Shown in pieces: positions 1,850 to 56,948 of a DNA stretch of 64,000 nt. Source of the stretch: Octopus vulgaris (Eukaryota); the NCBI GenBank assembly GCA_951406725.2, contig OX597816.1, positions 81,096,001 through 81,160,000 on the forward strand, read 5' to 3'. The notes beneath the pieces are model-generated. The model made no database searches. It was not told where the DNA came from and saw only the letters and a list, made by a program, of their open reading frames with translations. Positions within the stretch are counted from its first letter, which is position 1. Every line of letters starts with the position of its first letter. A program made the translations under genes and the position numbers.

Positions 1850-2075
1850 ATGTAGAAATGAAAATTATTTCCTATTTAGCTGTGAAGCAACACATCACTA
1901 ACAGCTTTACAGTTTAATGGTAGGCATTTAGGCTTAACAGAATCAGTTTAGTTTTGTCTTATAAATGCTGCACATGAAAATCTAAACTGGTTTAGTTTTA
2001 GTCTGATAATTTCGAAGCGCGAAATTCTAGATGACTGAGTCACTTATAAAACTGTAACACTAATTCATTAAAAAA
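1850..2075 (+). mobile_element. Possible decayed 3' end of a Penelope-like element with a degenerate hammerhead
   Basis: Reads LNRISLVLSYKC(+fs)HEN, like the PLE C-terminal LNxRSExxxKCRH. It is followed by CTGATAA..CGAAA-T-TCTAGA at 2003-2031. Confidence 0.35.
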
Positions 2076-2352
2076 ATGTATTTATATATGTATACACATA
2101 CAGGCCCATACGAATGAGTATGTGTGTGTGTGTGTGTGTGAGCGAGAGAGAGAGAGAGAGAGATTGTGTAGGTACCGTGTATAGTTGAATATTAGGTTAA
2201 ATAACCGCTCCGTGCTTTTTAACACAGTATGAGCTATGAGTTTACTGGAAAAGGTTTGACAGTAGCATCGAATACACAACATTTTGCCGTCGTCAGAATG
2301 ATACATGGGCGTGTGTTTGAGTGTTTGGTTGTGTGTGTGTGCATGGTTTTAT

Positions 2353-2386
<34 letters not shown>

Positions 2387-2389
2387 AAC

Positions 2390-2530
2390 AAACATGAAAA
2401 CACAAAGAGAAAACACAACAACGCGAGGACGTGGAACAAGTATAGTGTTATTGGACACTCAGGAAAGGAAAGATCCAAGGAAGGGAAGACGGAGGAAAAA
2501 AATCGCCAACGATACACACACACGGTTACA
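2390..2530 (-). mobile_element. Short dispersed element, internally deleted copy of the 50485-50691 element
   Basis: Reverse-complement match to 50485-50691 except that the ~60-nt hammerhead segment is missing. It lies between microsatellites. Confidence 0.8.
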
Positions 2531-2551
2531 TAATATATATATATGTATATA

Positions 2552-2605
<54 letters not shown>

Positions 2606-2649
2606 TGCATACACACACATAGATAGATAGATAAATAGATAGATATAGT

Positions 2650-3350
2650 ATCAACAATGATTTAACGTTGATAGTTCGTAAATAGGCAGGTGTAGTAACA
2701 GAGCTTGATAAGATGAAACTTTTATCATATAATACCATGGCAGGAGTAGAAATAGTGAGCTGAAGAAGTAAGCAAAATAAATGTGGAAGAAGGGTTGGAA
2801 GGACCAATAATTCCTAAGACTGTTGTGTACTCAAATTTACAAACTTATAAGTGCATTAGTTTGGATAAGTACGCATACAACAAAGAGAAGTGAAGCCCGA
2901 CGTTTCGGATTTGACTCTTTATCCGAGAGAAAAGTGGTTTCATTTGAGTGAGATAGTACTAAAACGTGCTGGAGAAAACAGGTGTAACTCACATGAAGTG
3001 AGCGTAGATAATAAGAAAATTTAAAGAGTATCAACAAATTGACTTATTCTATTATCGGAAGAGAGTCCTGTGTTTGTGTTAGAAGTGGTTATAATTGTAG
3101 GGACGTGTAATGGGAGGCCAAGAGACACAGCTGACAAAGTTTAATGTATATAAAATTATGCTCCTTATTGCAAACTGTAGTAAGTGTAGAAGAGACTGAG
3201 AGGTGAGACAGCACGTTTCCGTATCAGATTCTGAAGTACGTTGAGGATGATTAACATTTAATTTGGATATCTATGTGAATCGACGGTAGGAATTTTGTTG
3301 CATGGATTCCGACACATTCACAAAAAGAACATTGTACATTTCAACAGAAG
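2650..3350 (-). pseudogene. Possible ancient CR1/Jockey-group LINE ORF2 C-terminal remnant
   Basis: Weak frame-hopping motifs LLILFK..LR, SFQPFFH, SLFYSCHG. Confidence 0.3.
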
Positions 3351-3399
3351 AGAACATTGAGAAGTTTAACGTTTACACTTGTAAAGCAAAATAGCCCAT

Positions 3400-3406
3400 A
3401 TGTGTA

Positions 3407-3441
<35 letters not shown>

Positions 3442-3470
3442 TCTTGTGGGTGTGTAGCGATAGTACTACT

Positions 3471-3510
<40 letters not shown>

Positions 3511-3532
3511 CATACATACATACATACATACA

Positions 3533-3566
<34 letters not shown>

Positions 3567-3635
3567 CATACATACATAGATGACAGACAGACAGACAGAC
3601 AGACAGATAGATAGATAGATAGATACATACATACA

Positions 3636-3669
<34 letters not shown>

Positions 3670-3684
3670 CATACATACATAGAT

Positions 3685-3760
<76 letters not shown>
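3400..3760. repeat. Compound (TG)n/(GATA)n/(CATA)n/(GACA)n microsatellite with an internally duplicated block
   Basis: Directly visible. Confidence 0.95.
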
Positions 3761-3762
<2 letters not shown>

Positions 3763-3802
3763 ATTACTGTATTCTCTCTGTAACCCCATTTCTTTCTTTG
3801 TC

Positions 3803-3848
<46 letters not shown>

Positions 3849-4611
3849 CCAAATTTTCTACCACAGCTAACAACTGTCTATGTACCTTACAGCTGACTGC
3901 ATTCGTACCACTTCAGTCATTCTCGATTTATTCGTCTCTACTCCTCTCATTAAGCATACTGTACGCAAAAGTCCGGGACCCACACTAATTTCTACACCCA
4001 GTATTTCTTGCTCGGGACTTTAGCCCTCTAAAATTCCCTGCAACAGTCAACTTGCAACAGTTGATGCCGAATGTTCAAGACATCGATGTTCATGGTTTCG
4101 GAAGGGTTGGGAAGGTTAAAATCATAGCATTTTCTCCAAACCATATTAATATAAATACAAAAGACAGACAAACAGACAGACGGACGGACGGACGGACGGA
4201 TGGACGAACAGACAGACAGACAGACAGACTGATAGATAGATAGATAAAAAATTAGATGTAGAGGGAGACAGACAGACAGACAGAAAAATAAATAGATCAA
4301 ACTTCTCAACTCCTAATTATAGTCACACGGCTGCTTAACATCGTTAATTTTATGACGCATAGGTTTGTGATTAAAAGTTTTTCAAAGACATCTTCTCTAG
4401 CATCAGACTATCGCTATTTTAAAAGGAGTAGCTTCTATTGGCCCGGTTTTGTCAATAGATCAATCGATCTGATGAAATTGGAACGAAACATGCAATGGTC
4501 GCATTCAACACAAGCATCGCCTGACAATGTTGAAGAGAAACACAATTGTGAATGGTATTCTTACATACTTGCAGACTTCTCTGAATTCTGATTGTCTATA
4601 TGTGTATGTAG

Positions 4612-4646
<35 letters not shown>

Positions 4647-4945
4647 TCTCTGTGTGTGTACATGTATGATATAGCATAAGAGAAAAAGAGTTACATTTAC
4701 ATATATGTATGTATGTTTTTGTATACGCACGCTTACATACACACATATACATATACACACACACAGATAAAGACTGCTGCATATGATGCATAAATGTATA
4801 TACATATGTGCATATGTGAGTGAGTGCGTGGGTGAGTGTTGTATATATATATATAGACACCAATATATGTGTATGTAATATACGTATGTGTGTATGAGTG
4901 TATATATCAATATATATATATATATATATATATGAGTGTATATAT

Positions 4946-4985
<40 letters not shown>

Positions 4986-5199
4986 ATATATATATATATC
5001 ACTGCATCCTTTCTATGCCATACTGCTGAGTTTTCTTATATGCCCGCACATGTTCACACATACCATCATGTAAAACAGCAAACAATCAAACACTTCGGGG
5101 TTATTGGAATCTTTATTCTACTGAAGAAATGATAGGATATCAAAGGTGAAAGATTGATTTACAGAACGTCAAAACCTTTGGGCGTACATTCTTACAAAC

Positions 5200-5453
5200 A
5201 CACACATAAACACACACACACATACATACATACATACATACATACATACATACATACATACACACACATATACACACACACATACGCACACACATACGCA
5301 CACACATACGCACACACACACACAACACACACACACACCTGCATACATACATACATATATACATACATACATACATACATACATACATACATACATACAT
5401 ACATACATACATACATACATACATACATACATACATACATACATACATACATA
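5200..5453. repeat. (CA)n/(CATA)n microsatellite
   Basis: Directly visible. Confidence 0.95.
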
Positions 5454-5479
5454 CCTGTTTATTTTTGTTTTCTTGCTGT

Positions 5480-7250
5480 CATTGGAGTTTTTAGTTTATT
5501 TCGATCTGCTGCTGCTCAATCGTAAAACTTTGCTAAGATATTATAAACTGGAGTCTTGCTTTTCAGCTATTCGTCTTTTACACTTTAAGAAAGCCTTATT
5601 CATGTTTGTTGTCCCAGACATCGTGATCATTGAGTGAATTATGGAGCCTTGTTTCTTCAAAAGTCCACGTTCAATCACATTTTGATCCACGCACGACGTT
5701 ACATAAATTTTCTTTGTCCTTGCTTATATTTTGTCATTCCATACTCTATCAGCTCGGTTACGCTTTAATTAGGTTACACATATCTCTATCAACTGATCTT
5801 TTGTGTGCGTTCGTGCCTGTTGTGTGTGTACGGGATTTTGCAATGTACCTTGGAGAGACATTACTACCAACTTTTATTTCATTTCCTCCCTCAACTTCTA
5901 TAGCTATAATCATGATATATATATATCTTTTATTTTTGTGCCAGCGAATTTGTAATAAATGTTGCTTTTCTACTTGGAAGTGCCACTACACTTTATAATT
6001 TGTTTCATATATGAAAATAGATCTAAGCCACAGCCACTCTCCTTTCGTGGAACTTATAATCTTCTTACATTCCCTTGATGTTGAAATTTCCAGTAAATAC
6101 TAAGCAGTTTCGAAGTTTTCGTTTAGTCTTTGTAACCAATTCTGAATACCAAATGTCGTTGTAAGCGACATTCTTGTAGTAAACAGAGAATTCATACTAC
6201 TATATTTTCTTTTATTCGCTTAAGGCATTCATTTCATGTCCTCATCCTGAATAATGGATGCATCAACCTTGACGTTCTCGTGTTTTTCCTTCTTTTTTAA
6301 AAAAAAATAGTTGTAATTCTTTCTTCGTAAAGTATATTACCAAACCACTCATGTTTATTTGTGGGGAGGTCAGAACACAAATTTCCACTCTCTGATTACC
6401 AAGAATGGACATTTTGGACACGCCAAATTTTATTCTAATGTCAAAATAATGAAATCCGATTACATTTTGATGTGGTTTACACTTGGTCGATACAACTTCA
6501 GGTCGTCTCCGAAGTAAAAGAGAAGTTTCTGGATTCAAATTATTTATTTATATAAACATAATGTTTTCTAAGTGGTGAGATGACGGGTTTATCAAGCGTA
6601 CAAAGAACAGTATTGACAAGGTATCACTTGGCACGATACATTTTTTATAATGTATGTTAGATTTGTATGATTCGTTCTGACCTTTAAGAAGTAAAATGCA
6701 GCACTCAAGCGTTGGCTACTTTTTGTAAAACAACTACCGTCGATATGGAACTTATGTTAAACTTAATTCTTTGATAACCCACCCGTTGTACATCGTCGAA
6801 TGCTTTCTGGTATTCTCGTCGCATTACATTCATGTTACAGCGGTTCTTTACTACTTCTTCTGTATCATTTTATAGATTAGTAGTTGCTCTATATTGGTTA
6901 TAATTCCGAATTTTTCCCAATTTGTTCAAGTGTTATAATATAGTTGTTAGAATAATGATTTTGAAGAAGAGATTAGGTACCCATTCTCATACATGATAGT
7001 CTAGCCGGCTAAGGGGTGGTAATTTTAGCTTGAGTGGTTTGCTTAATTTTTTAAATGAGAAGATTAAAGGCAAGTAAATGCAGCTGGGTAGCCTTAGCGA
7101 ATTTTTGCCTGCGTCTTGATTGAATAACTGCACCTCGTTACGATGAATGAAAAGTTTAACTTCACACACATTCATAATGAGATTTAAAGATTCACCTTTT
7201 AGGAAATGTTCTGCTACTTCATTTACTACAACCAGTTCCTCTTAGTATTT
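5480..7250 (-). pseudogene. Heavily decayed R4/Dong-like non-LTR retrotransposon reverse transcriptase fragment
   Basis: Colinear RT motifs across frameshifts on the - strand: LEQIG, IEQLLIYKMI (~6.9 kb), EYQKAFDDV (~6800), PSDTLSILFFV..NP (~6620), GDDLKLY (6490-6510), FDIRIKFGVSK (~6430), TFGIQNW (~6150), VRRL*VPRKESGCGL (~6025-6070). Boundaries are approximate. Confidence 0.8.
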
Positions 7251-7270
7251 TTGTTTAAGCACGTATCTAT

Positions 7271-7339
<69 letters not shown>

Positions 7340-7737
7340 GCGTGTGTGTGCGTGTGCAGTTTGAATGTTTAAGTAGAAATGTTCTGTATGTGGATCTACC
7401 GCTAAAAGCGTCTATAATCTAGTTACAGTTCCAAATACATAACTGAAGATTAGAGTCGCCATGTTTCATATACATATATGAAGACAAATATCTGTATGTG
7501 TGTGTGTGTGTATTTGTGTGTACATACACACACATACACACACACACACACACAGAAATCATACATGTTTATATATAAGCATATGTGTGTGTGCATGCGT
7601 GTGTGTGTGTCTGTGTGTGTGTGCATATACACGCACACACATTGTCCACAATATTTCTTAAGACATTAAAAAGAAACAAACGCAGCAATGGGATTTCAAC
7701 CACTCATATAACATGCAGAATGTAATCACGTTTACCG

Positions 7738-7856
7738 TATGATGATGATGCTGATGATGCTGATGATGATGATGATGCTGATGATGATGATGAGGATGAT
7801 GAGGATGATGAGGATGATGATGATGCTGATGATGATGATGATGATGATGATGATGC

Positions 7857-7887
<31 letters not shown>

Positions 7888-8087
7888 GCTCATGATGCTG
7901 ATGCTGATGATGATGCTGATGATGATGCTGATGATGATGATGATGATGATGATGGTGCTGATGATGGTGCTGATGATGGTGCTGATGATGATGCTGATGA
8001 TGATGATGATGGTGCTGATGATGATGCTGATGCTGATGATGATGACGACGACGACGATGACGACGACGATGATGATGATGATGATGA
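7738..8087. repeat. Long imperfect (GAT)n trinucleotide array
   Basis: GAT units interspersed with GCT/GAG/GGT/GAC. Confidence 0.95.
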
Positions 8088-8919
8088 CAGCAACAACAAA
8101 ACCAACAACAGCAGTAACAACAGAAGAAACAACAGCAGCGGAAACAAAATTAACAAATGTAAACACACATCAACAATGGTAAAAACACGAACTAACAAGT
8201 AAACAGTTTGCTTTTTTTTTTCTTTGCCTTTCTCAAACTGAGTTTGTTAAATTGAGAGCATTTGAGAGGGAAATATAACATCTGGCTTCAAGTTGACTCT
8301 CAATATTGGGTAACTTTCAAGCTGAAGTATATTTATAAAGAAGGAAAGAGAGGAAATAAAACAGAAAATTCACGTAGAAAAATGGAAAAGGATGAAAGTA
8401 CGATAAATTGAGCGAGAAGTCTGTTGGCTGAGTAATTGATTGAAACATATGATATATATATATATATATGAATGCAATTTTCGTAAATGATAGAGAAAAA
8501 CAGGTTATAGTGTTGAAGGAAATGGAATAAAAATGATATATACACGTATAAACACATACACAATGATGCATAATAATTAAAGAAAGATGAGCAAGAAATA
8601 AAAGAAAACGAAAAGTAAAGTACTCTAGCAGGGAGAGTGGGGTGGGAGATGATACAGTTGCGATAGAAAATGGAAGGACAAGAAAGAAAAAAGGGAGAGA
8701 GAGAGTTGGAGGGAGATGGGTGGGTGTTCTAAAGTAAGAAATGCAGAGAGATGTAGTGTAGCGAGAGGATGGAAAAGAAACACGCAAGAAACTATGTTTA
8801 GGATTTTGACTATTAAGATGAGGTGCCACAGACGAGATAAGGCGTGAGGGAAGAGAATGTGAATGTGTGTACTTAAGCAAAGACAAATAATGATAGTAAT
8901 GATGATGGCTAAGAGGAAG

Positions 8920-9127
8920 AAAATGAAGAAGAAGAAGAAGAAGAAGAAGAAGAAGAAGAAGAACAAGAAGAAGAAGAACAAGAAGAACAAGAACAAGAAC
9001 AAGAACAAGAACAAGAAGAAGAAGAACAACAACAACAACAAGTAGAAGAAGAAGAAAATGAAGAAAAGGAGGAGGAGGAGAAGATTAAGAAGGAGGAGGA
9101 GAAGATTAAGAAGGAGGAGGAGAAGAT

Positions 9128-32746: not shown

Positions 32747-33164
32747 GGGCGGCGAGCTGGCAGAAACGTTAGCATGCCGGGCGAAATGTGTAGCCGTATT
32801 TTGTCTGTCGTTACGTTGTGAATTCAAATTCCGCCGAGGTCGACTTTGCCTCTCATCCTTTCGGGGTCGATCAATTAAGTACCAGTTACGCACTGGGGTC
32901 AATGTAATCGACTTAATACCTATGTCTGTCCTTCTTTGTCTCCTCTATGTTTAGCCCCTTGTGGGTAGTAAAGAAATAGGTATTTCGTCTGCCGTTACGT
33001 TCTGAGTTCAAATTCCGCCGAGGTCGACTTTGCCTTTCATCCTTTCGGTGTCGATAAATTAAGTACCAGTTACGCACTGGGGTCGATGTAATTGACTTAA
33101 TACCTATGTCTGTCCTTCTTTGTCCCCTCTATGTTTAGCCCCTTGTGAGTAATAAAGAAATAGG
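32747..33164 (+). mobile_element. SINE family B with tandemly duplicated 184-bp body
   Basis: Head GGCGGCGAGCTGGCAGAAACGTTAGC, B box GAGTTCAAATTCC, conserved GGTCGACTTTGCCTTTCATCCTTTCGGGGTCGATAAATTAAGTACCAG domain. Units start at 32796 and 32980. Confidence 0.9.
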
Positions 33165-37503: not shown

Positions 37504-37549
<46 letters not shown>

Positions 37550-37894
37550 TTTTTTATCCAAGGGGAGGCAATAGGAGCAACAACCACAGGAACAGCACAA
37601 AATTCAAAGATAGACTAAACACATACAAATCTTATATACTAGTTTATATCTATACAGTCCGACATATTAGAAATTTAAAAATTCAGTAATATATAAGTAT
37701 CATATACAAATAAAAATATAAGTACAAATATAAATATAATATAAATATAAATTTTGCATATAATACGCTTAAAACTGTTAGAATAAGAGGAATAAATATA
37801 GTGATAATAAAATAAAAATATACCATATCAAGACACGAGTAAAATTCCGGCGAATAGTACATAAAATATAATACACATACAAGCTTACAAAAAT

Positions 37895-37980
37895 GGGCCG
37901 TTTCGGGGGATGTGCCAATCAATACTAGATATATCAGTACTTAAAATAGTACTTAAAATTGGCACTCCCTTCGTCAGGAT
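37895..37980 (-). ncRNA. Degenerate hammerhead ribozyme with extended stem II
   Basis: - strand CTGACGA(37977-71)-A-GGGAGTGCCAA..~40 nt..TTGGCACATCCC-cc-GAAAC(37904-00)-GGCCCAT. There is no canonical NUH triplet. Confidence 0.5.
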
Positions 37981-38378
37981 GTCCTATACAACACATAAAA
38001 TATGAACAAACACACAAATACATAGTCACATACCGGCCATTCTCAGAACACGATATTTACGTACTCCCAGAAAAATTTTTACGTTGATCCTGAATGGAAC
38101 ATAATACGCAAGCCATTCGATACAGTCGCCATAGGAAATTGTATGCACGCAGCGCCATCTGGCCCGTTTCACTTCAGCACTTAATTTATTTTATTTTATT
38201 TTATTCCAATCTTATAAATTCTCCCATACATGCAAAGCCACATACTCAGGTTTGAGTCCTCGACTAACAGCTATTTTTCATATAATCACATTACTTTTAT
38301 TTTTTCTCGTTTTTCACTCACTATACTTTCTAAACTTAATTCACTTGTTATTGGTTAGCTCTAACTTTTATTGCTATT

Positions 38379-38908
38379 TCAATTATCATAAGTTTCATAA
38401 GGCACTGAATAAATATTCCCTGTTTTATCAGAAAGAATGTGTAGATTGGGATCCTCCTTCAGTTTAGCTATTGTATGTTGTAACTGATTTTGGAAAGCAT
38501 TCGAATATCTGGAGTATTTAAGGTTCTTAATCATATATATTAGGTCCTTTTCAAATTTCGCTAAGTCGGGGTTTGGTGGTGCGTTTTTATATGACTTTAA
38601 ATTATAAGATTCCGTATCCTCAGTTTGGTTGGTAATGCTGGTCCTCATGGTTTCGTCCTTCGTCTTCAAGATCCTGGACTTATCAACATAGAAGGCACGC
38701 CACCTAAGTCTAGATATAAACTCATTGGTCTTATGCAAGAGAGTTTCCATATATAAGATTTGCATGTGTTTGGTCTATCTTTGAATTTTGTGGTGTTCCT
38801 GTGGTTGTTGCTCCTATTGCCTCCCCTTGGATAAAAAAAGTGTATACAGCTCATTGGAGCACTTCTATTTCTAGTCCGTTGTATATCTTGAGTGTTGTTG
38901 TCACTCAA
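38379..38908 (-). pseudogene. PLE ORF N-terminal fragment up to the DKG-like motif (frameshifted, truncated)
   Basis: FKDRPNTCKSY/(fs at TATATA ~38750)/METLLHKTNEFISRLRWRAFY...YNLKS.K.PP..L.KFEKDL..MIKNLKY...NAFQ.QL...I..L......LSDKTGNIY, a typical PLE pre-RT region. Confidence 0.75.
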
Positions 38909-38922
38909 GATATAACTTTATA

Positions 38923-38972
<50 letters not shown>

Positions 38973-39309
38973 GTGTATATCTAAATGTATATGCGCATAC
39001 ATACATAAACACACATGTATCACCATGTGTTGCAACCTGCGACATTTGAGCTGAAACACTCCGCGGTATGTACGTCTGCTTGTATTGTTTGCGATATGCA
39101 GGTAAATGAACGATGAACCAAGTACCACATAAAGTAATAAGATGGATTATATCGACTGAAAACATTGTTTAATGACGGTAAAAGAAAAAAAACGAAAGAA
39201 TCAAAGAATGAATGATTTATTCGAACCATGCTCAACTCTGACTGCCATAGCGCTGATAGGATTCCTTATGGACAGGACTCTGTTCTCTTGCCGGTAAAGT
39301 TTCTCGTGG

Positions 39310-50164: not shown

Positions 50165-50220
50165 TAGGGGACACATGAGGTTGGGAAGCAAGCTCCTTAC
50201 CACGCACCCACTCCTGCGCC
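50165..50220 (-). mobile_element. SINE family A head fragment
   Basis: Reverse complement of GGCGCAGGAGTGG.TG.GTGGTAAG.AGCTTGCTTCCCAACC.CATG. Confidence 0.75.
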
Positions 50221-50229
50221 TCCACAGGG

Positions 50230-50276
<47 letters not shown>

Positions 50277-50279
<3 letters not shown>

Positions 50280-50484
50280 GCAGGAGTGGCTGTGTGGTAA
50301 GTAGCTAGCATACCAACCACATGGTTCCGGGTTCAGTCCCATTGCGTGGCACCATGGGTACAGGACGTCACCAACTGACCGACTGAATAAATACTAGGCT
50401 TAAAAAGAAGAAGTCCTGGGGTCGATTTGTTCGACTAAAGGTGGTGCTCCAGTATGGCCGCAGTCAAATGACTGAAACAAGTAA
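50277..50484 (+). mobile_element. SINE family A, internally deleted/chimeric
   Basis: The head runs to GTGGCACC and joins the 3' tail through a foreign ~20-nt piece. Confidence 0.85.
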
Positions 50485-50687
50485 TGTGACCGCGTGTGTA
50501 CCGTAGGCGGTTTTTTTCCTCCGTCTTCCCTTCTCTGGATCTTTCCTTTTCCTATGTTTCTGACGAAGAGGTCCGCTCGAAACGTTAAACCCTCCTTCTT
50601 GCCTTCCTTCCTGAGCGTCCAATAATACTATATTTGTTCCACGTTCTCGCGTTGTTGTGTTTTCTCTTTGTGTTTTCATGTTTGGAT

Positions 50688-50691
<4 letters not shown>
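50485..50691 (+). mobile_element. ~205-bp hammerhead-carrying element (PLE pseudo-LTR or retrozyme-like)
   Basis: Contains an intact hammerhead core, ends at (TA)n, and has a second copy at 2390-2530. Confidence 0.75.
50556..50590 (+). ncRNA. Minimal type I hammerhead ribozyme with palindromic stem III
   Basis: GTTT-CTGACGA(50560-66)-A-GAGgtccgCTC-GAAA(50579-82)-CGTT^AAAC. Stem I is GTTT/AAAC, stem III is the ACGT palindrome, and the triplet is GUU. Confidence 0.75.
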
Positions 50692-50755
<64 letters not shown>

Positions 50756-50757
<2 letters not shown>

Positions 50758-50871
50758 CGTAGGAGTGGCTGTGTGGTAAGTAGCTTGCTTACCAACCACA
50801 TGGTTCTGGGTTCAGTCCCACTGCGTGGCACTTGGACAAGTGTCTTCTACTATGGCCTCGGGCAGACCAAA

Positions 50872-54027: not shown

Positions 54028-54503
54028 GCCCTGATGCAGTACCAAGCAGTGACTCCCATGGTTCTTGATCTTAACTGATTGGAAGTGTTATCATGTACAT
54101 TGTTTTGTCTTGGCATAAAAGATGGTCTACAGCAAATATTCTGCTCAATACCACAGATTTGCTTGTCAGTTGTTTGACCTGAACCAGTTGACCATGTCCA
54201 TTAGTGACTGACGATATATGCATATCTGATCTCGAGCAGAAGTGCTGGGGGAGCATCAAGCCATGTGTTGAGAAGAATTCTTTGGGTTTTGGATAATTCA
54301 CCTTTGGAAACATGGGTGTTTTGTTCAACATCCTTAAACAAACCTTATTCAGGGACCTTATGATGCGCACATATGATTGTGATGCATGTGCCTGGTGTAC
54401 CCTTATCAGATGGGCAGTCATGATGGGTATACTGGGCGTCGTATATTTTACCCCAGTGTCACTTTGATGGCATGCACTGCTCTCTCACTCAATAATAATA
54501 ATA
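54028..54503 (+). mobile_element. Probable non-LTR retroelement 3' fragment ending in (AAT)n
   Basis: Higher-GC non-coding block with sharp boundaries against (GAA)n and an (AAT)n tail. The classification is inferred. Confidence 0.45.
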
Positions 54504-54814: not shown

Positions 54815-55100
54815 CAAATTAATTACATACTCCAAAATATAAGCAAGTTCTTTTGATTAAATGGATTTTGTAGACCTTGATATTTGGCGGTTATTACGAG
54901 ATGTTAATAGAATTCATTATTTTCTTTGGTTTTGCTTTTTGAGAAATTTTCGGTTTTTCTCTTTTCCATTTTGGTTTTTCTCACATAGTAATTTTCAACA
55001 TGTGGCAGAGGAAATTATTCATTTAGTGAATCACGTAAGGTTTGAATATCAGCATTTTCAAGTCAACCATTATACGAAGATGAAGATGATTGCTAGTGAT
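54815..55100 (+). repeat. Old local duplication, copy 1 (copy 2 at 57112-57400)
   Basis: Shared blocks AAGCAAGT.CTTT.GATTAAATGGATT, GGCAGAGGAAATTATT, GTAAGGTTTGAATATCAG. Confidence 0.85.
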
Positions 55101-55339
55101 GATATAGTTGAAGTGAAATTAGATGCAGCCATGTTGCCCATATCAGTCAGCCATCGTAGAGCCACTACAACAATGTTACCATAGCAGGTATAATACTTCA
55201 GTGCAACAGTACCATCACAACATAATTAGTACGTTGACCTTCTGATAATGCTTGAACCAGTTGTCAAGCACCCCACCTAGATGTCGATGCTAGATGTGTC
55301 GAAACAGTTGTTTCATCTTCCACCTTTCATTTATCATAC

Positions 55340-55741: not shown

Positions 55742-56948
55742 CACAGGGATTGGAAAAAATAGTTGGAACAGTAGAAATTTAACTCCAATATTTCAATGCG
55801 CCATTATATTACGAATATCCATACAAATTTCATTGGGCGTGTTTTTGTTTTGGTTTGTAGATGGTTTTATTTATCTAATTTGCTGATTATTTCTATCTCT
55901 TTTTCAGATTGTAGTATAAATTAAGCTAAGATGCGAAAAAGGGCAAATTGTTGGAACTCGAATGGTAGGAGCTTCCTTCACCAGAACAGCTGAACTATAT
56001 CAAGTACCATGGTTGAATTTGAGAAGCAGGGTAAAACCTCCAGCAGGACTTCGAAGCTCACTGAAAGAGTGTTGAATCGCATCGTGAAGAAAAATCACCG
56101 GACAACTGCCCCCAAAGTAACTACAGAGTTGAATCAGCATCTGACTAGCCCAGTTCCGACAAAAACTGTTCGCTGTGAGCTCAATAAAGCTGGATATCAT
56201 GGAAGAGATGCCATCAGGAAACCTCTGCTTTCTCATCAAAACATTCAGAAAAGGCTGAATTGGTGTAGAGATCTCAAGAGCTAGTCGACAGACCAATGGA
56301 AGCAAGTAAAATTTTCCGACGAGTCCAGTTTTTCTCTTTTCCTCCCTGCAGGGTGAGTTTATGTGTGGAGGCAACCCAGGGAAGCTTTTTATCCTGACTG
56401 CCTTCTTCTTACAGTGAAGCATGGAGGAGGGTCTGTGATGGTTTGGGTTGCCATTTCTTAAAATTCTCCTAGTCCAGTCGTTGCCCTGCACGGTAGGATC
56501 AACAGCAATGATTATCTGAATATTTTGGAAAATCAAGTCCTTCCCCTGGTCCAGTCATTATTCCTTGATGGTGAGTGCAGCTTCCAAGATGACAATGCTT
56601 CAATGCACACCTCTCATGTTGTTAAGAATTGACATGAAGAGCATAATAGTGAGCTACAATACATGGAGTAGTCCCCTTAATCTCCAGACTTCAATATTAT
56701 TGAGCATCTGTGGTGCATCTTGGAGTGACAGGTAAGAAGTCGTTACCCTCTACCGTCGTGTCTGCAACAGCTGGAACAGGTTTTGCGGGGGTAATGGCTC
56801 AAGATTCCTCTCAATGAAGTCAGGAAGCTGCATGAATCAATTCCTAGACGCAACGAAGCAGTTCAGAAAGCTGAAAGAGAACGAACTCCATATTAAATAA
56901 ATATTCATTGAATTTAACACGTGTTCCAATTATTTTGTCCAACCCGTG
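55742..56948 (+). mobile_element. Tc1-like DNA transposon, full length (~1.2 kb), inactive
   Basis: TA target duplication (55740-41, 56949-50). Imperfect ~28-bp TIRs CACAGGGATTGGAAAAAATAGTTGGAACA / TGTTCCAATTATTTTGTCCAACCCGTG. Transposase inside. Confidence 0.95.
55935..56896 (+). pseudogene. Tc1-family transposase pseudogene, DD36E spacing
   Basis: EKGQIVG.. N-terminus, then one frame from 56009 with several stops: RKPLLS..RLNWC, FSDES (D 56318), VKHGGGSVMVW, FQDDNA (D 56591), SPDFNIIEHLW (E 56702), ending TPY* at 56896. Confidence 0.95.

Follow-up and report, generated by a model that had tools for sequence, protein, structure and literature searches.

What is the 207-nucleotide repeat unit at positions 50485-50691 (+) of this 64,000-nucleotide stretch of Octopus vulgaris DNA (the window), and does the ribozyme motif inside it take part in its spread? 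An earlier note, made from the sequence alone, had described it as a (TA)n-anchored element without an open reading frame, carrying an intact minimal hammerhead, and as a candidate retrozyme or derivative of a Penelope-like element (PLE). The unit is non-coding, resembles a PLE terminal repeat (pLTR) and is spanned end to end in all four sequencing runs analyzed; its 5′ half is pyrimidine-rich and its 3′ half is GT-rich.

The hammerhead motif

It is evident that the type I hammerhead motif at 50556-50590 (+) is real. A CUGACGA box (50560-50566) is followed by one extra A (50567; together 50560-50567) and by stem-loop II (50568-50578), which is closed by the G10.1-C11.1 pair (G50568-C50578). 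The segment 50579-50586 holds the GAAA box, starting at 50579, the palindrome ACGU (50582-50585), forming a helix III without a loop, and the GUU triplet. Stem I pairs GUUU (50556-50559) with AAAC (50587-50590), giving a 4-bp helix I, and from a reading of these letters the cut is predicted after U 50586. Both boxes, stem I, stem III and the triplet had been named in the earlier note and are confirmed here. A strict descriptor modelled on published minimal-hammerhead features has one match in the window and none in 300 block-wise dinucleotide shuffles, and a direct hammerhead pattern has none in 100 shuffles. A second match to a looser descriptor, at 5121, was rejected: it has a 2-bp stem II and a long helix III and fails the strict descriptor.

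The description of this hammerhead as intact applies to its core boxes and not to its stem II. In copy 1, the unit described so far, stem II has three base pairs (GAG/CUC, 50568-50570 with 50576-50578) and a private G at 50571, where C makes up 98.0-99.6% of the depth in the sequencing runs. Thus, helix II has 4 bp in the family majority, with a 3-nt loop, and the private G shortens it in copy 1. With a 4-bp helix I and this 3-nt loop 2 in the majority, the motif differs from the canonical loop 1-loop 2 hammerhead.

The motif type appears to be the Penelope minimal hammerhead, to judge by its agreement with the published consensus feature by feature. That consensus comprises a U-rich leader, CUGANGAH, G10.1-C11.1, a palindrome at 15.2/16.2 and a short helix I, and the aligned sequences often have GUU (Cervera and de la Pena 2014, PMC4209133). 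Like the minimal hammerheads of PLEs described there, the motif is of type I, with an extra nucleotide after A9 and the G10.1-C11.1 pair, and it shares with them the loop-less palindromic ACGU, the 4-bp helix I, the GUU triplet and the mostly solo copies. Helix II differs, with 4 bp in the unit majority against 7-8 bp in the Schistosoma examples of that paper.

The unit could instead be a SINE or another non-PLE repeat whose hammerhead arose by chance or was captured. Rfam, which the earlier note had proposed as a check, detected no hammerhead at the unit even at E ≤ 10 (the local scan gave two matches, both lncRNA noise; across the window there were 365 matches, and the 150 listed are microsatellite-driven noise of miRNA type). 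Together with a hammerhead fold that is not the minimum-energy fold (z = -1.19 for the whole unit), a core without extra conservation and the lack of an identified parent, this would speak for such an origin. We consider it very improbable, given the shuffles, the same core found behind PLE open reading frames elsewhere, a unit without a tRNA-like head, and the fit to four features that emerged in PMC4209133 without being part of the descriptor used there.

Folding of copy 1 is in keeping with a low predicted activity for this copy. The forced monomer hammerhead reaches -3.1 kcal/mol against -7.0 kcal/mol, and a forced double hammerhead -4.3 kcal/mol, where the best two-strand fold has -18.1 kcal/mol; by these calculations the nested double-hammerhead pairing between two copies is geometrically possible and energetically not favoured. 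Minimal hammerheads were reported to show no monomer cleavage and low dimer cleavage (PMC4209133).

Ends, neighbours and the second copy

Copy 1 lies in an AT-rich window (25-40% GC) dense in microsatellites. At its 3′ end it abuts (TA)32 (50692-50755), the likely target site, behind which stands a SINE-like repeat (50756-50871, +). Its 5′ neighbour, outside the unit, is another SINE-like repeat (50277-50484, +) with several further copies in the window; we take these neighbours to be octopus SINEs. ARAGORN reported no tRNA in the 5′ neighbour or the unit region. The (TA)n anchor described earlier is present on the 3′ side of copy 1 only, its 5′ neighbour being SINE-like, and the second copy has (AT)n on its 5′ side. 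Short, inverted SINE-like 5′ pieces surround (TA)22 at 50174-50323 and fold as a long hairpin, and the Rfam matches there are miRNA-type noise.

The statement that the element has no open reading frame holds in substance and not to the letter. An antisense ATG-started frame of 71 codons (50679-50467, -) overlaps the unit; it is probably spurious because it has no Pfam match and no homolog among 24 longer candidate proteins and one of near length, which is weak evidence. With no homolog among these proteins, we abandoned the frame as a lead to a fused PLE open reading frame.

A second copy, as the earlier note stated, does exist in the window, at 2389-2531 (-), and its hammerhead is gone. Both of its halves align with copy 1 at 91-94%; a deletion of 60 nt, equivalent to 50548-50607 and lying between TTCCT repeats, has removed the whole motif. 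It lies ~48 kb from copy 1, inverted and not in tandem, has (AT)n on its 5′ side (2533-2602), and its last 7 nt are replaced by TG/TA repeats. No third copy was found in the window with nhmmer. Both copies are flanked by other repeats and not by an open reading frame for reverse transcriptase (RT) and GIY-YIG.

It is worth noting that the start base is identical in both window copies, whereas the upstream DNA is unrelated (a SINE-like tail in one and (AT)n in the other); the 3′ microsatellites are (TA)32 behind copy 1 and TG/TA repeats behind copy 2. In each of the four runs the 5′ loose ends also meet at this base, with 3-4 A/T letters in front of it; their consensus lines are at most 30 letters long, agree at 0.53-0.72 and reach only 3-4 letters past the start. 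The 5′ end is thus apparently fixed, as judged from two full copies and short loose-end lines, the alternative being a fixed AT-rich upstream continuation.

This common start bears on the possibility that the copies are solo pLTRs or 5′-truncated tails of one very abundant autonomous PLE, and that the unit was never a self-standing mover. PLE insertions are mostly 5′-truncated, and genomes hold thousands of minimal hammerheads, mostly single and probably from truncated PLEs (PMC4209133). In a rotifer, pLTRs of 193-218 bp and solo pLTRs have been described (PMC3846280), and PLEs make up 6.83% of the O. vulgaris genome, with 190 Penelope-like families (PMC13282606). This origin is a serious possibility, which we nevertheless judge to be the lesser one: the window copies and the loose ends agree on the 5′ start, whereas remnants of a comparator PLE family scatter (see below); no strand-changing joint, as is typical of the inverted 5′ pieces of PLEs, is among the 13 joints listed in the runs; and tblastn with Hydra-like and Neptune-like queries found no PLE open reading frame similarity near either copy.

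Family size and variation in sequencing runs

Part or all of the stretch is present in 22 of the 23 listed runs, under five organism labels, and none of the runs listed with the stretch is recorded as RNA; run X1, which may be RNA, shows the same behaviour as the rest. Four of them, with labels A, C, D and A (three organism labels), gave 21,223, 5,058, 8,508 and 4,589 contigs fitting the unit, or 39,378 over the four runs. For each run, the peak summed depth was divided by the median depth of the eight long pieces listed for it; the ratios are 0.7-1.5 × 10^5, from which we estimate a family of roughly 10^5 dispersed copies, as an order of magnitude only because depth is not copy number. The depth ratio agrees with the density in the window: 2 copies in 64 kb would correspond to 87,500 in a genome of 2.8 Gb, the size that follows from an O. 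vulgaris table in PMC13282606. The estimate is about tenfold above the 2,000-9,000 minimal hammerheads per genome of PMC4209133. A non-autonomous family, as proposed earlier, is plausible in view of the shared 5′ start and this very high copy number.

Variation in the family does not clearly single out the ribozyme. At the 3% level, 2 of 11 core sites, 2 of 16 stem sites and 23 of 124 other sites are variable (P = 0.79, Fisher's exact test), and at 10% the counts are 1, 1 and 11 (P = 1.0); variability was counted over 50512-50662 only, since the alignments are clipped beyond these positions. At the available resolution the core appears no more conserved than the flanks within the family, a result that the earlier note had named among those that would count against its reading. 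U4 is C in 24-30% of the depth in all four runs, a change that lowers hammerhead activity considerably in vitro, yet with viroid infectivity retained (PMC3088659). CpG letters reach 3% at 1 of 5 constrained positions and at 9 of 13 free ones (P = 0.12), which hints weakly at earlier selection on the ribozyme in source copies. With the U4C share, the flank-like variability of the core and a hammerhead that is not the minimum-energy fold, the ribozyme of the family would be largely passive.

These data also bear on whether the unit is a non-LTR retrozyme, in which tandem sources would give multimeric RNA, dimer-activated cleavage would release monomers that circularise, and the dispersed monomers would be their offspring. 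Non-LTR retrozymes have tandem units, mostly canonical hammerheads and demonstrated circular RNAs (PMC7229834; bioRxiv 10.64898/2026.07.22.740005); the latter source argues that they are non-autonomous pLTR derivatives, admits minimal motifs too, and reports that the share of monomers ranges from 0 to 1 and that 1 of 9 dimers cleaved. The unit resembles them in being short, within their size range, and ORF-less, in its type I hammerhead, in its proposed pLTR origin and in its dispersed monomers, of which such families may have a high share (bioRxiv 10.64898/2026.07.22.740005); the possible geometry of the nested double hammerhead and the weak CpG hint also fit. It differs in having no tandem copies in the window, where both copies are solo, and in a minimal, not canonical, motif of a kind that cleaved little in vitro (PMC4209133). 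The 13 joints listed are all internal skips, none being head-to-tail (go-back) or strand-changing; the absence of go-back joints is weak evidence against tandem arrays because the contigs are short and break at microsatellites and (TA)n. The unfavourable energy of the double hammerhead and the presence of U4C in a quarter of the depth further argue against this route. We thus regard a retrozyme making circular RNAs, as the earlier note had inferred, as quite unlikely, from the solo copies, the listed joints and a core not conserved above its flanks.

Relation to Penelope-like elements

We then sought the same core elsewhere. A core-pattern search of metagenomes gave 79 loci (67 distinct by their flanks), whose agreement with the unit in the core follows from the construction of the search pattern. 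Their flanks look like animal PLE repeats, the hosts being putative. At positions left free by the pattern, 66 of the 67 distinct loci have U16.1 and all 67 have a non-G at 17, and helix I has at least 3 bp in 40 of them, with base pairs differing by family. Of the 79 loci, 7 have the remnant of a PLE ORF upstream in the sense orientation (L005, L008, L016, L023, L041, L065 and L070; the flanks of L008 and L023 are identical), and the remaining 72 have no ORF similarity to the queries used, which also suits the truncated-tail origin discussed above. L016 has an RVT_1 match (E = 5e-8), a CX2CxxC linker seen by eye and the hammerhead ~680 nt behind the stop; its C-terminal pieces have no Pfam match. 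In L016 and L005 the same core follows the ORF remnants in sense at 200-680 nt. These loci and the consensus fit support the earlier view of the unit as a PLE derivative with a minimal hammerhead. The unit has no DNA similarity to the 79 loci outside the motif, so the comparator loci indicate the kind of motif and not the parental element. The family-specific and core patterns had no match in viral contigs or in prokaryote genomes, and blastn found none in phages.

Across 56 loci of the main comparator PLE family, five references among them, the 5′ ends are scattered between 0 and 700 nt upstream of the core, and 33 of the 56 end within 10 nt of it. These 33 lose similarity just upstream of the core, often at an inverted-copy junction (e.g., L007, L011, L012, L013 and L017). 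The clustering near the core may reflect ascertainment by the pattern, or templates may preferentially be switched at the ribozyme. A count of inverted copies in this family (46 loci) was dropped, as the references themselves contain inverted pieces. One further locus, L037 (640-830, -), carries a same-core hammerhead with a 4-bp GUCC/GGAC helix I and no ORF nearby. Its T-rich tail ends in a TTGGATTA-like motif resembling the 3′ end of the 207-nt unit, and a second diverged piece lies inverted ~150 nt upstream.

Among PLE clades, a CX2-5CxxC linker marks the Neptune and Nematis elements, which are EN+ and have a microsatellite bias, and PLEs are biased toward (TA)n insertion (PMC8557442). The unit is like Neptune/Nematis elements in its (TA)n end and in the core shared with L016 and L005 behind their ORF remnants; it differs in that no ORF-linked copy of its family was found and no DNA similarity exists outside the motif. 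With Hydra-clade PLEs, including Hydra-1_Obim, it shares the (TA)n insertion, a hammerhead near the 3′ end and the occurrence in octopus (PMC8557442). The hammerheads of that clade have a helix III of 3-4 bp with a 1-3-nt loop (PMC8557442 File S1/S2), whereas helix III of the unit is ACGU only; given the longer helix III of the clade, the (TA)n end does not make the unit a Hydra element. The motif of Hydra-1_Obim differs in sequence, and the supplement of PMC8557442 contains none of the short unit motifs searched for. Precedents for ORF-less PLE derivatives with the 3′ end of autonomous families are the Chlamys PLEs such as MRC1 (PMC8557442), which differ in being algal, often head-to-tail multicopy and of a clade mostly without canonical hammerheads.

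The window itself holds an internally deleted Hydra-clade-like PLE at 37543-38990 (-), with (TA)n at both ends. Its N-terminal ORF piece (38382-38774) has RWR and DKT motifs and best matches an 806-aa protein (E = 4e-23) that has a weak GIY-YIG match; by its N-terminal sequence it belongs to a family other than Hydra-1_Obim. Its inverted terminal repeats, 97 nt and 96% alike, lie at 38750-38846 and 37543-37638. Within it, a decayed hammerhead-like motif (37890-37985, -) has the CUGACGA and GAAA boxes; its helix II is very long, its helix III is of Hydra type with a single mismatch, and its helix I is unclear. This remnant (~37540-38990) was rejected as the parent of the unit for its different helix III and the lack of DNA similarity (best 14 nt, E = 0.13).

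The reading that we put first, with about even confidence, is that the unit is a fixed-length non-autonomous derivative of a PLE pLTR, moved in trans into (TA)n, whose ribozyme is mostly passive. An autonomous PLE, probably a Neptune- or Poseidon-type one, would supply the RT/GIY-YIG protein that reverse-transcribes the unit and inserts it at (TA)n; because no autonomous parent was found, we infer both the mobilisation in trans and the clade. Transcripts spanning a copy would serve as template. Both ends would be kept fixed, the 3′ one by priming at (TA)n and the 5′ one by resolution of its junction in upstream AT-rich sequence. Because helix III has no loop, cleavage by the hammerhead would require a dimer paired through ACGU:ACGU and would be slow, so that monomer templates would stay whole and the ribozyme would be largely an inherited passenger. 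What the hammerhead does in PLEs is still described as unclear in the literature (PMC8557442).

A bolder version, which we hold to be unlikely, makes the unit a SINE-like, fixed-length mini-Penelope of ~10^5 copies (~0.7% of the genome), comparable to the retrozyme load of the axolotl. Its hammerheads would pair in trans via ACGU, so that any two copy-bearing transcripts, host pre-mRNAs included, could cleave one another or give off circles; the U4C subfamily would have escaped this as an attenuated lineage.

The literature already covers (TA)n targeting, PLE derivatives that are non-autonomous, and minimal hammerheads in PLE repeats together with their solo copies. The unit therefore likely represents a new family within a kind already known, rather than a new system. 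We found no description of the family in the literature on octopus, cephalopods, PLE hammerheads and retrozymes or in the supplements searched, and it may sit unnamed in repeat libraries. The available text of two octopus repeat papers (PMC13282606 and PMC8967140) mentions Penelope expansions and neither hammerheads nor ribozymes. The word Octopus is absent from one searched supplement file of PMC4209133, and other supplements of that paper or of the bioRxiv study could list a cephalopod motif. What the family adds is scale (~10^5 copies) and a natural experiment, in which a 24-30% U4C subfamily occurs with apparently fixed ends. With such a family, genome data alone could serve to test whether PLE-type amplification depends on an active ribozyme.

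Other features of the window include open frames of 107-184 codons at 56000-56554 (-), 54071-54484 (-) and 54861-55184 (+), which are non-repetitive and have no Pfam match at the cut-off; as an impression only, the frame at 56000-56554 may run antisense to what is left of a transposase. At 32796-33164, a 184-bp unit occurs twice in tandem, and the two copies are 93% alike.
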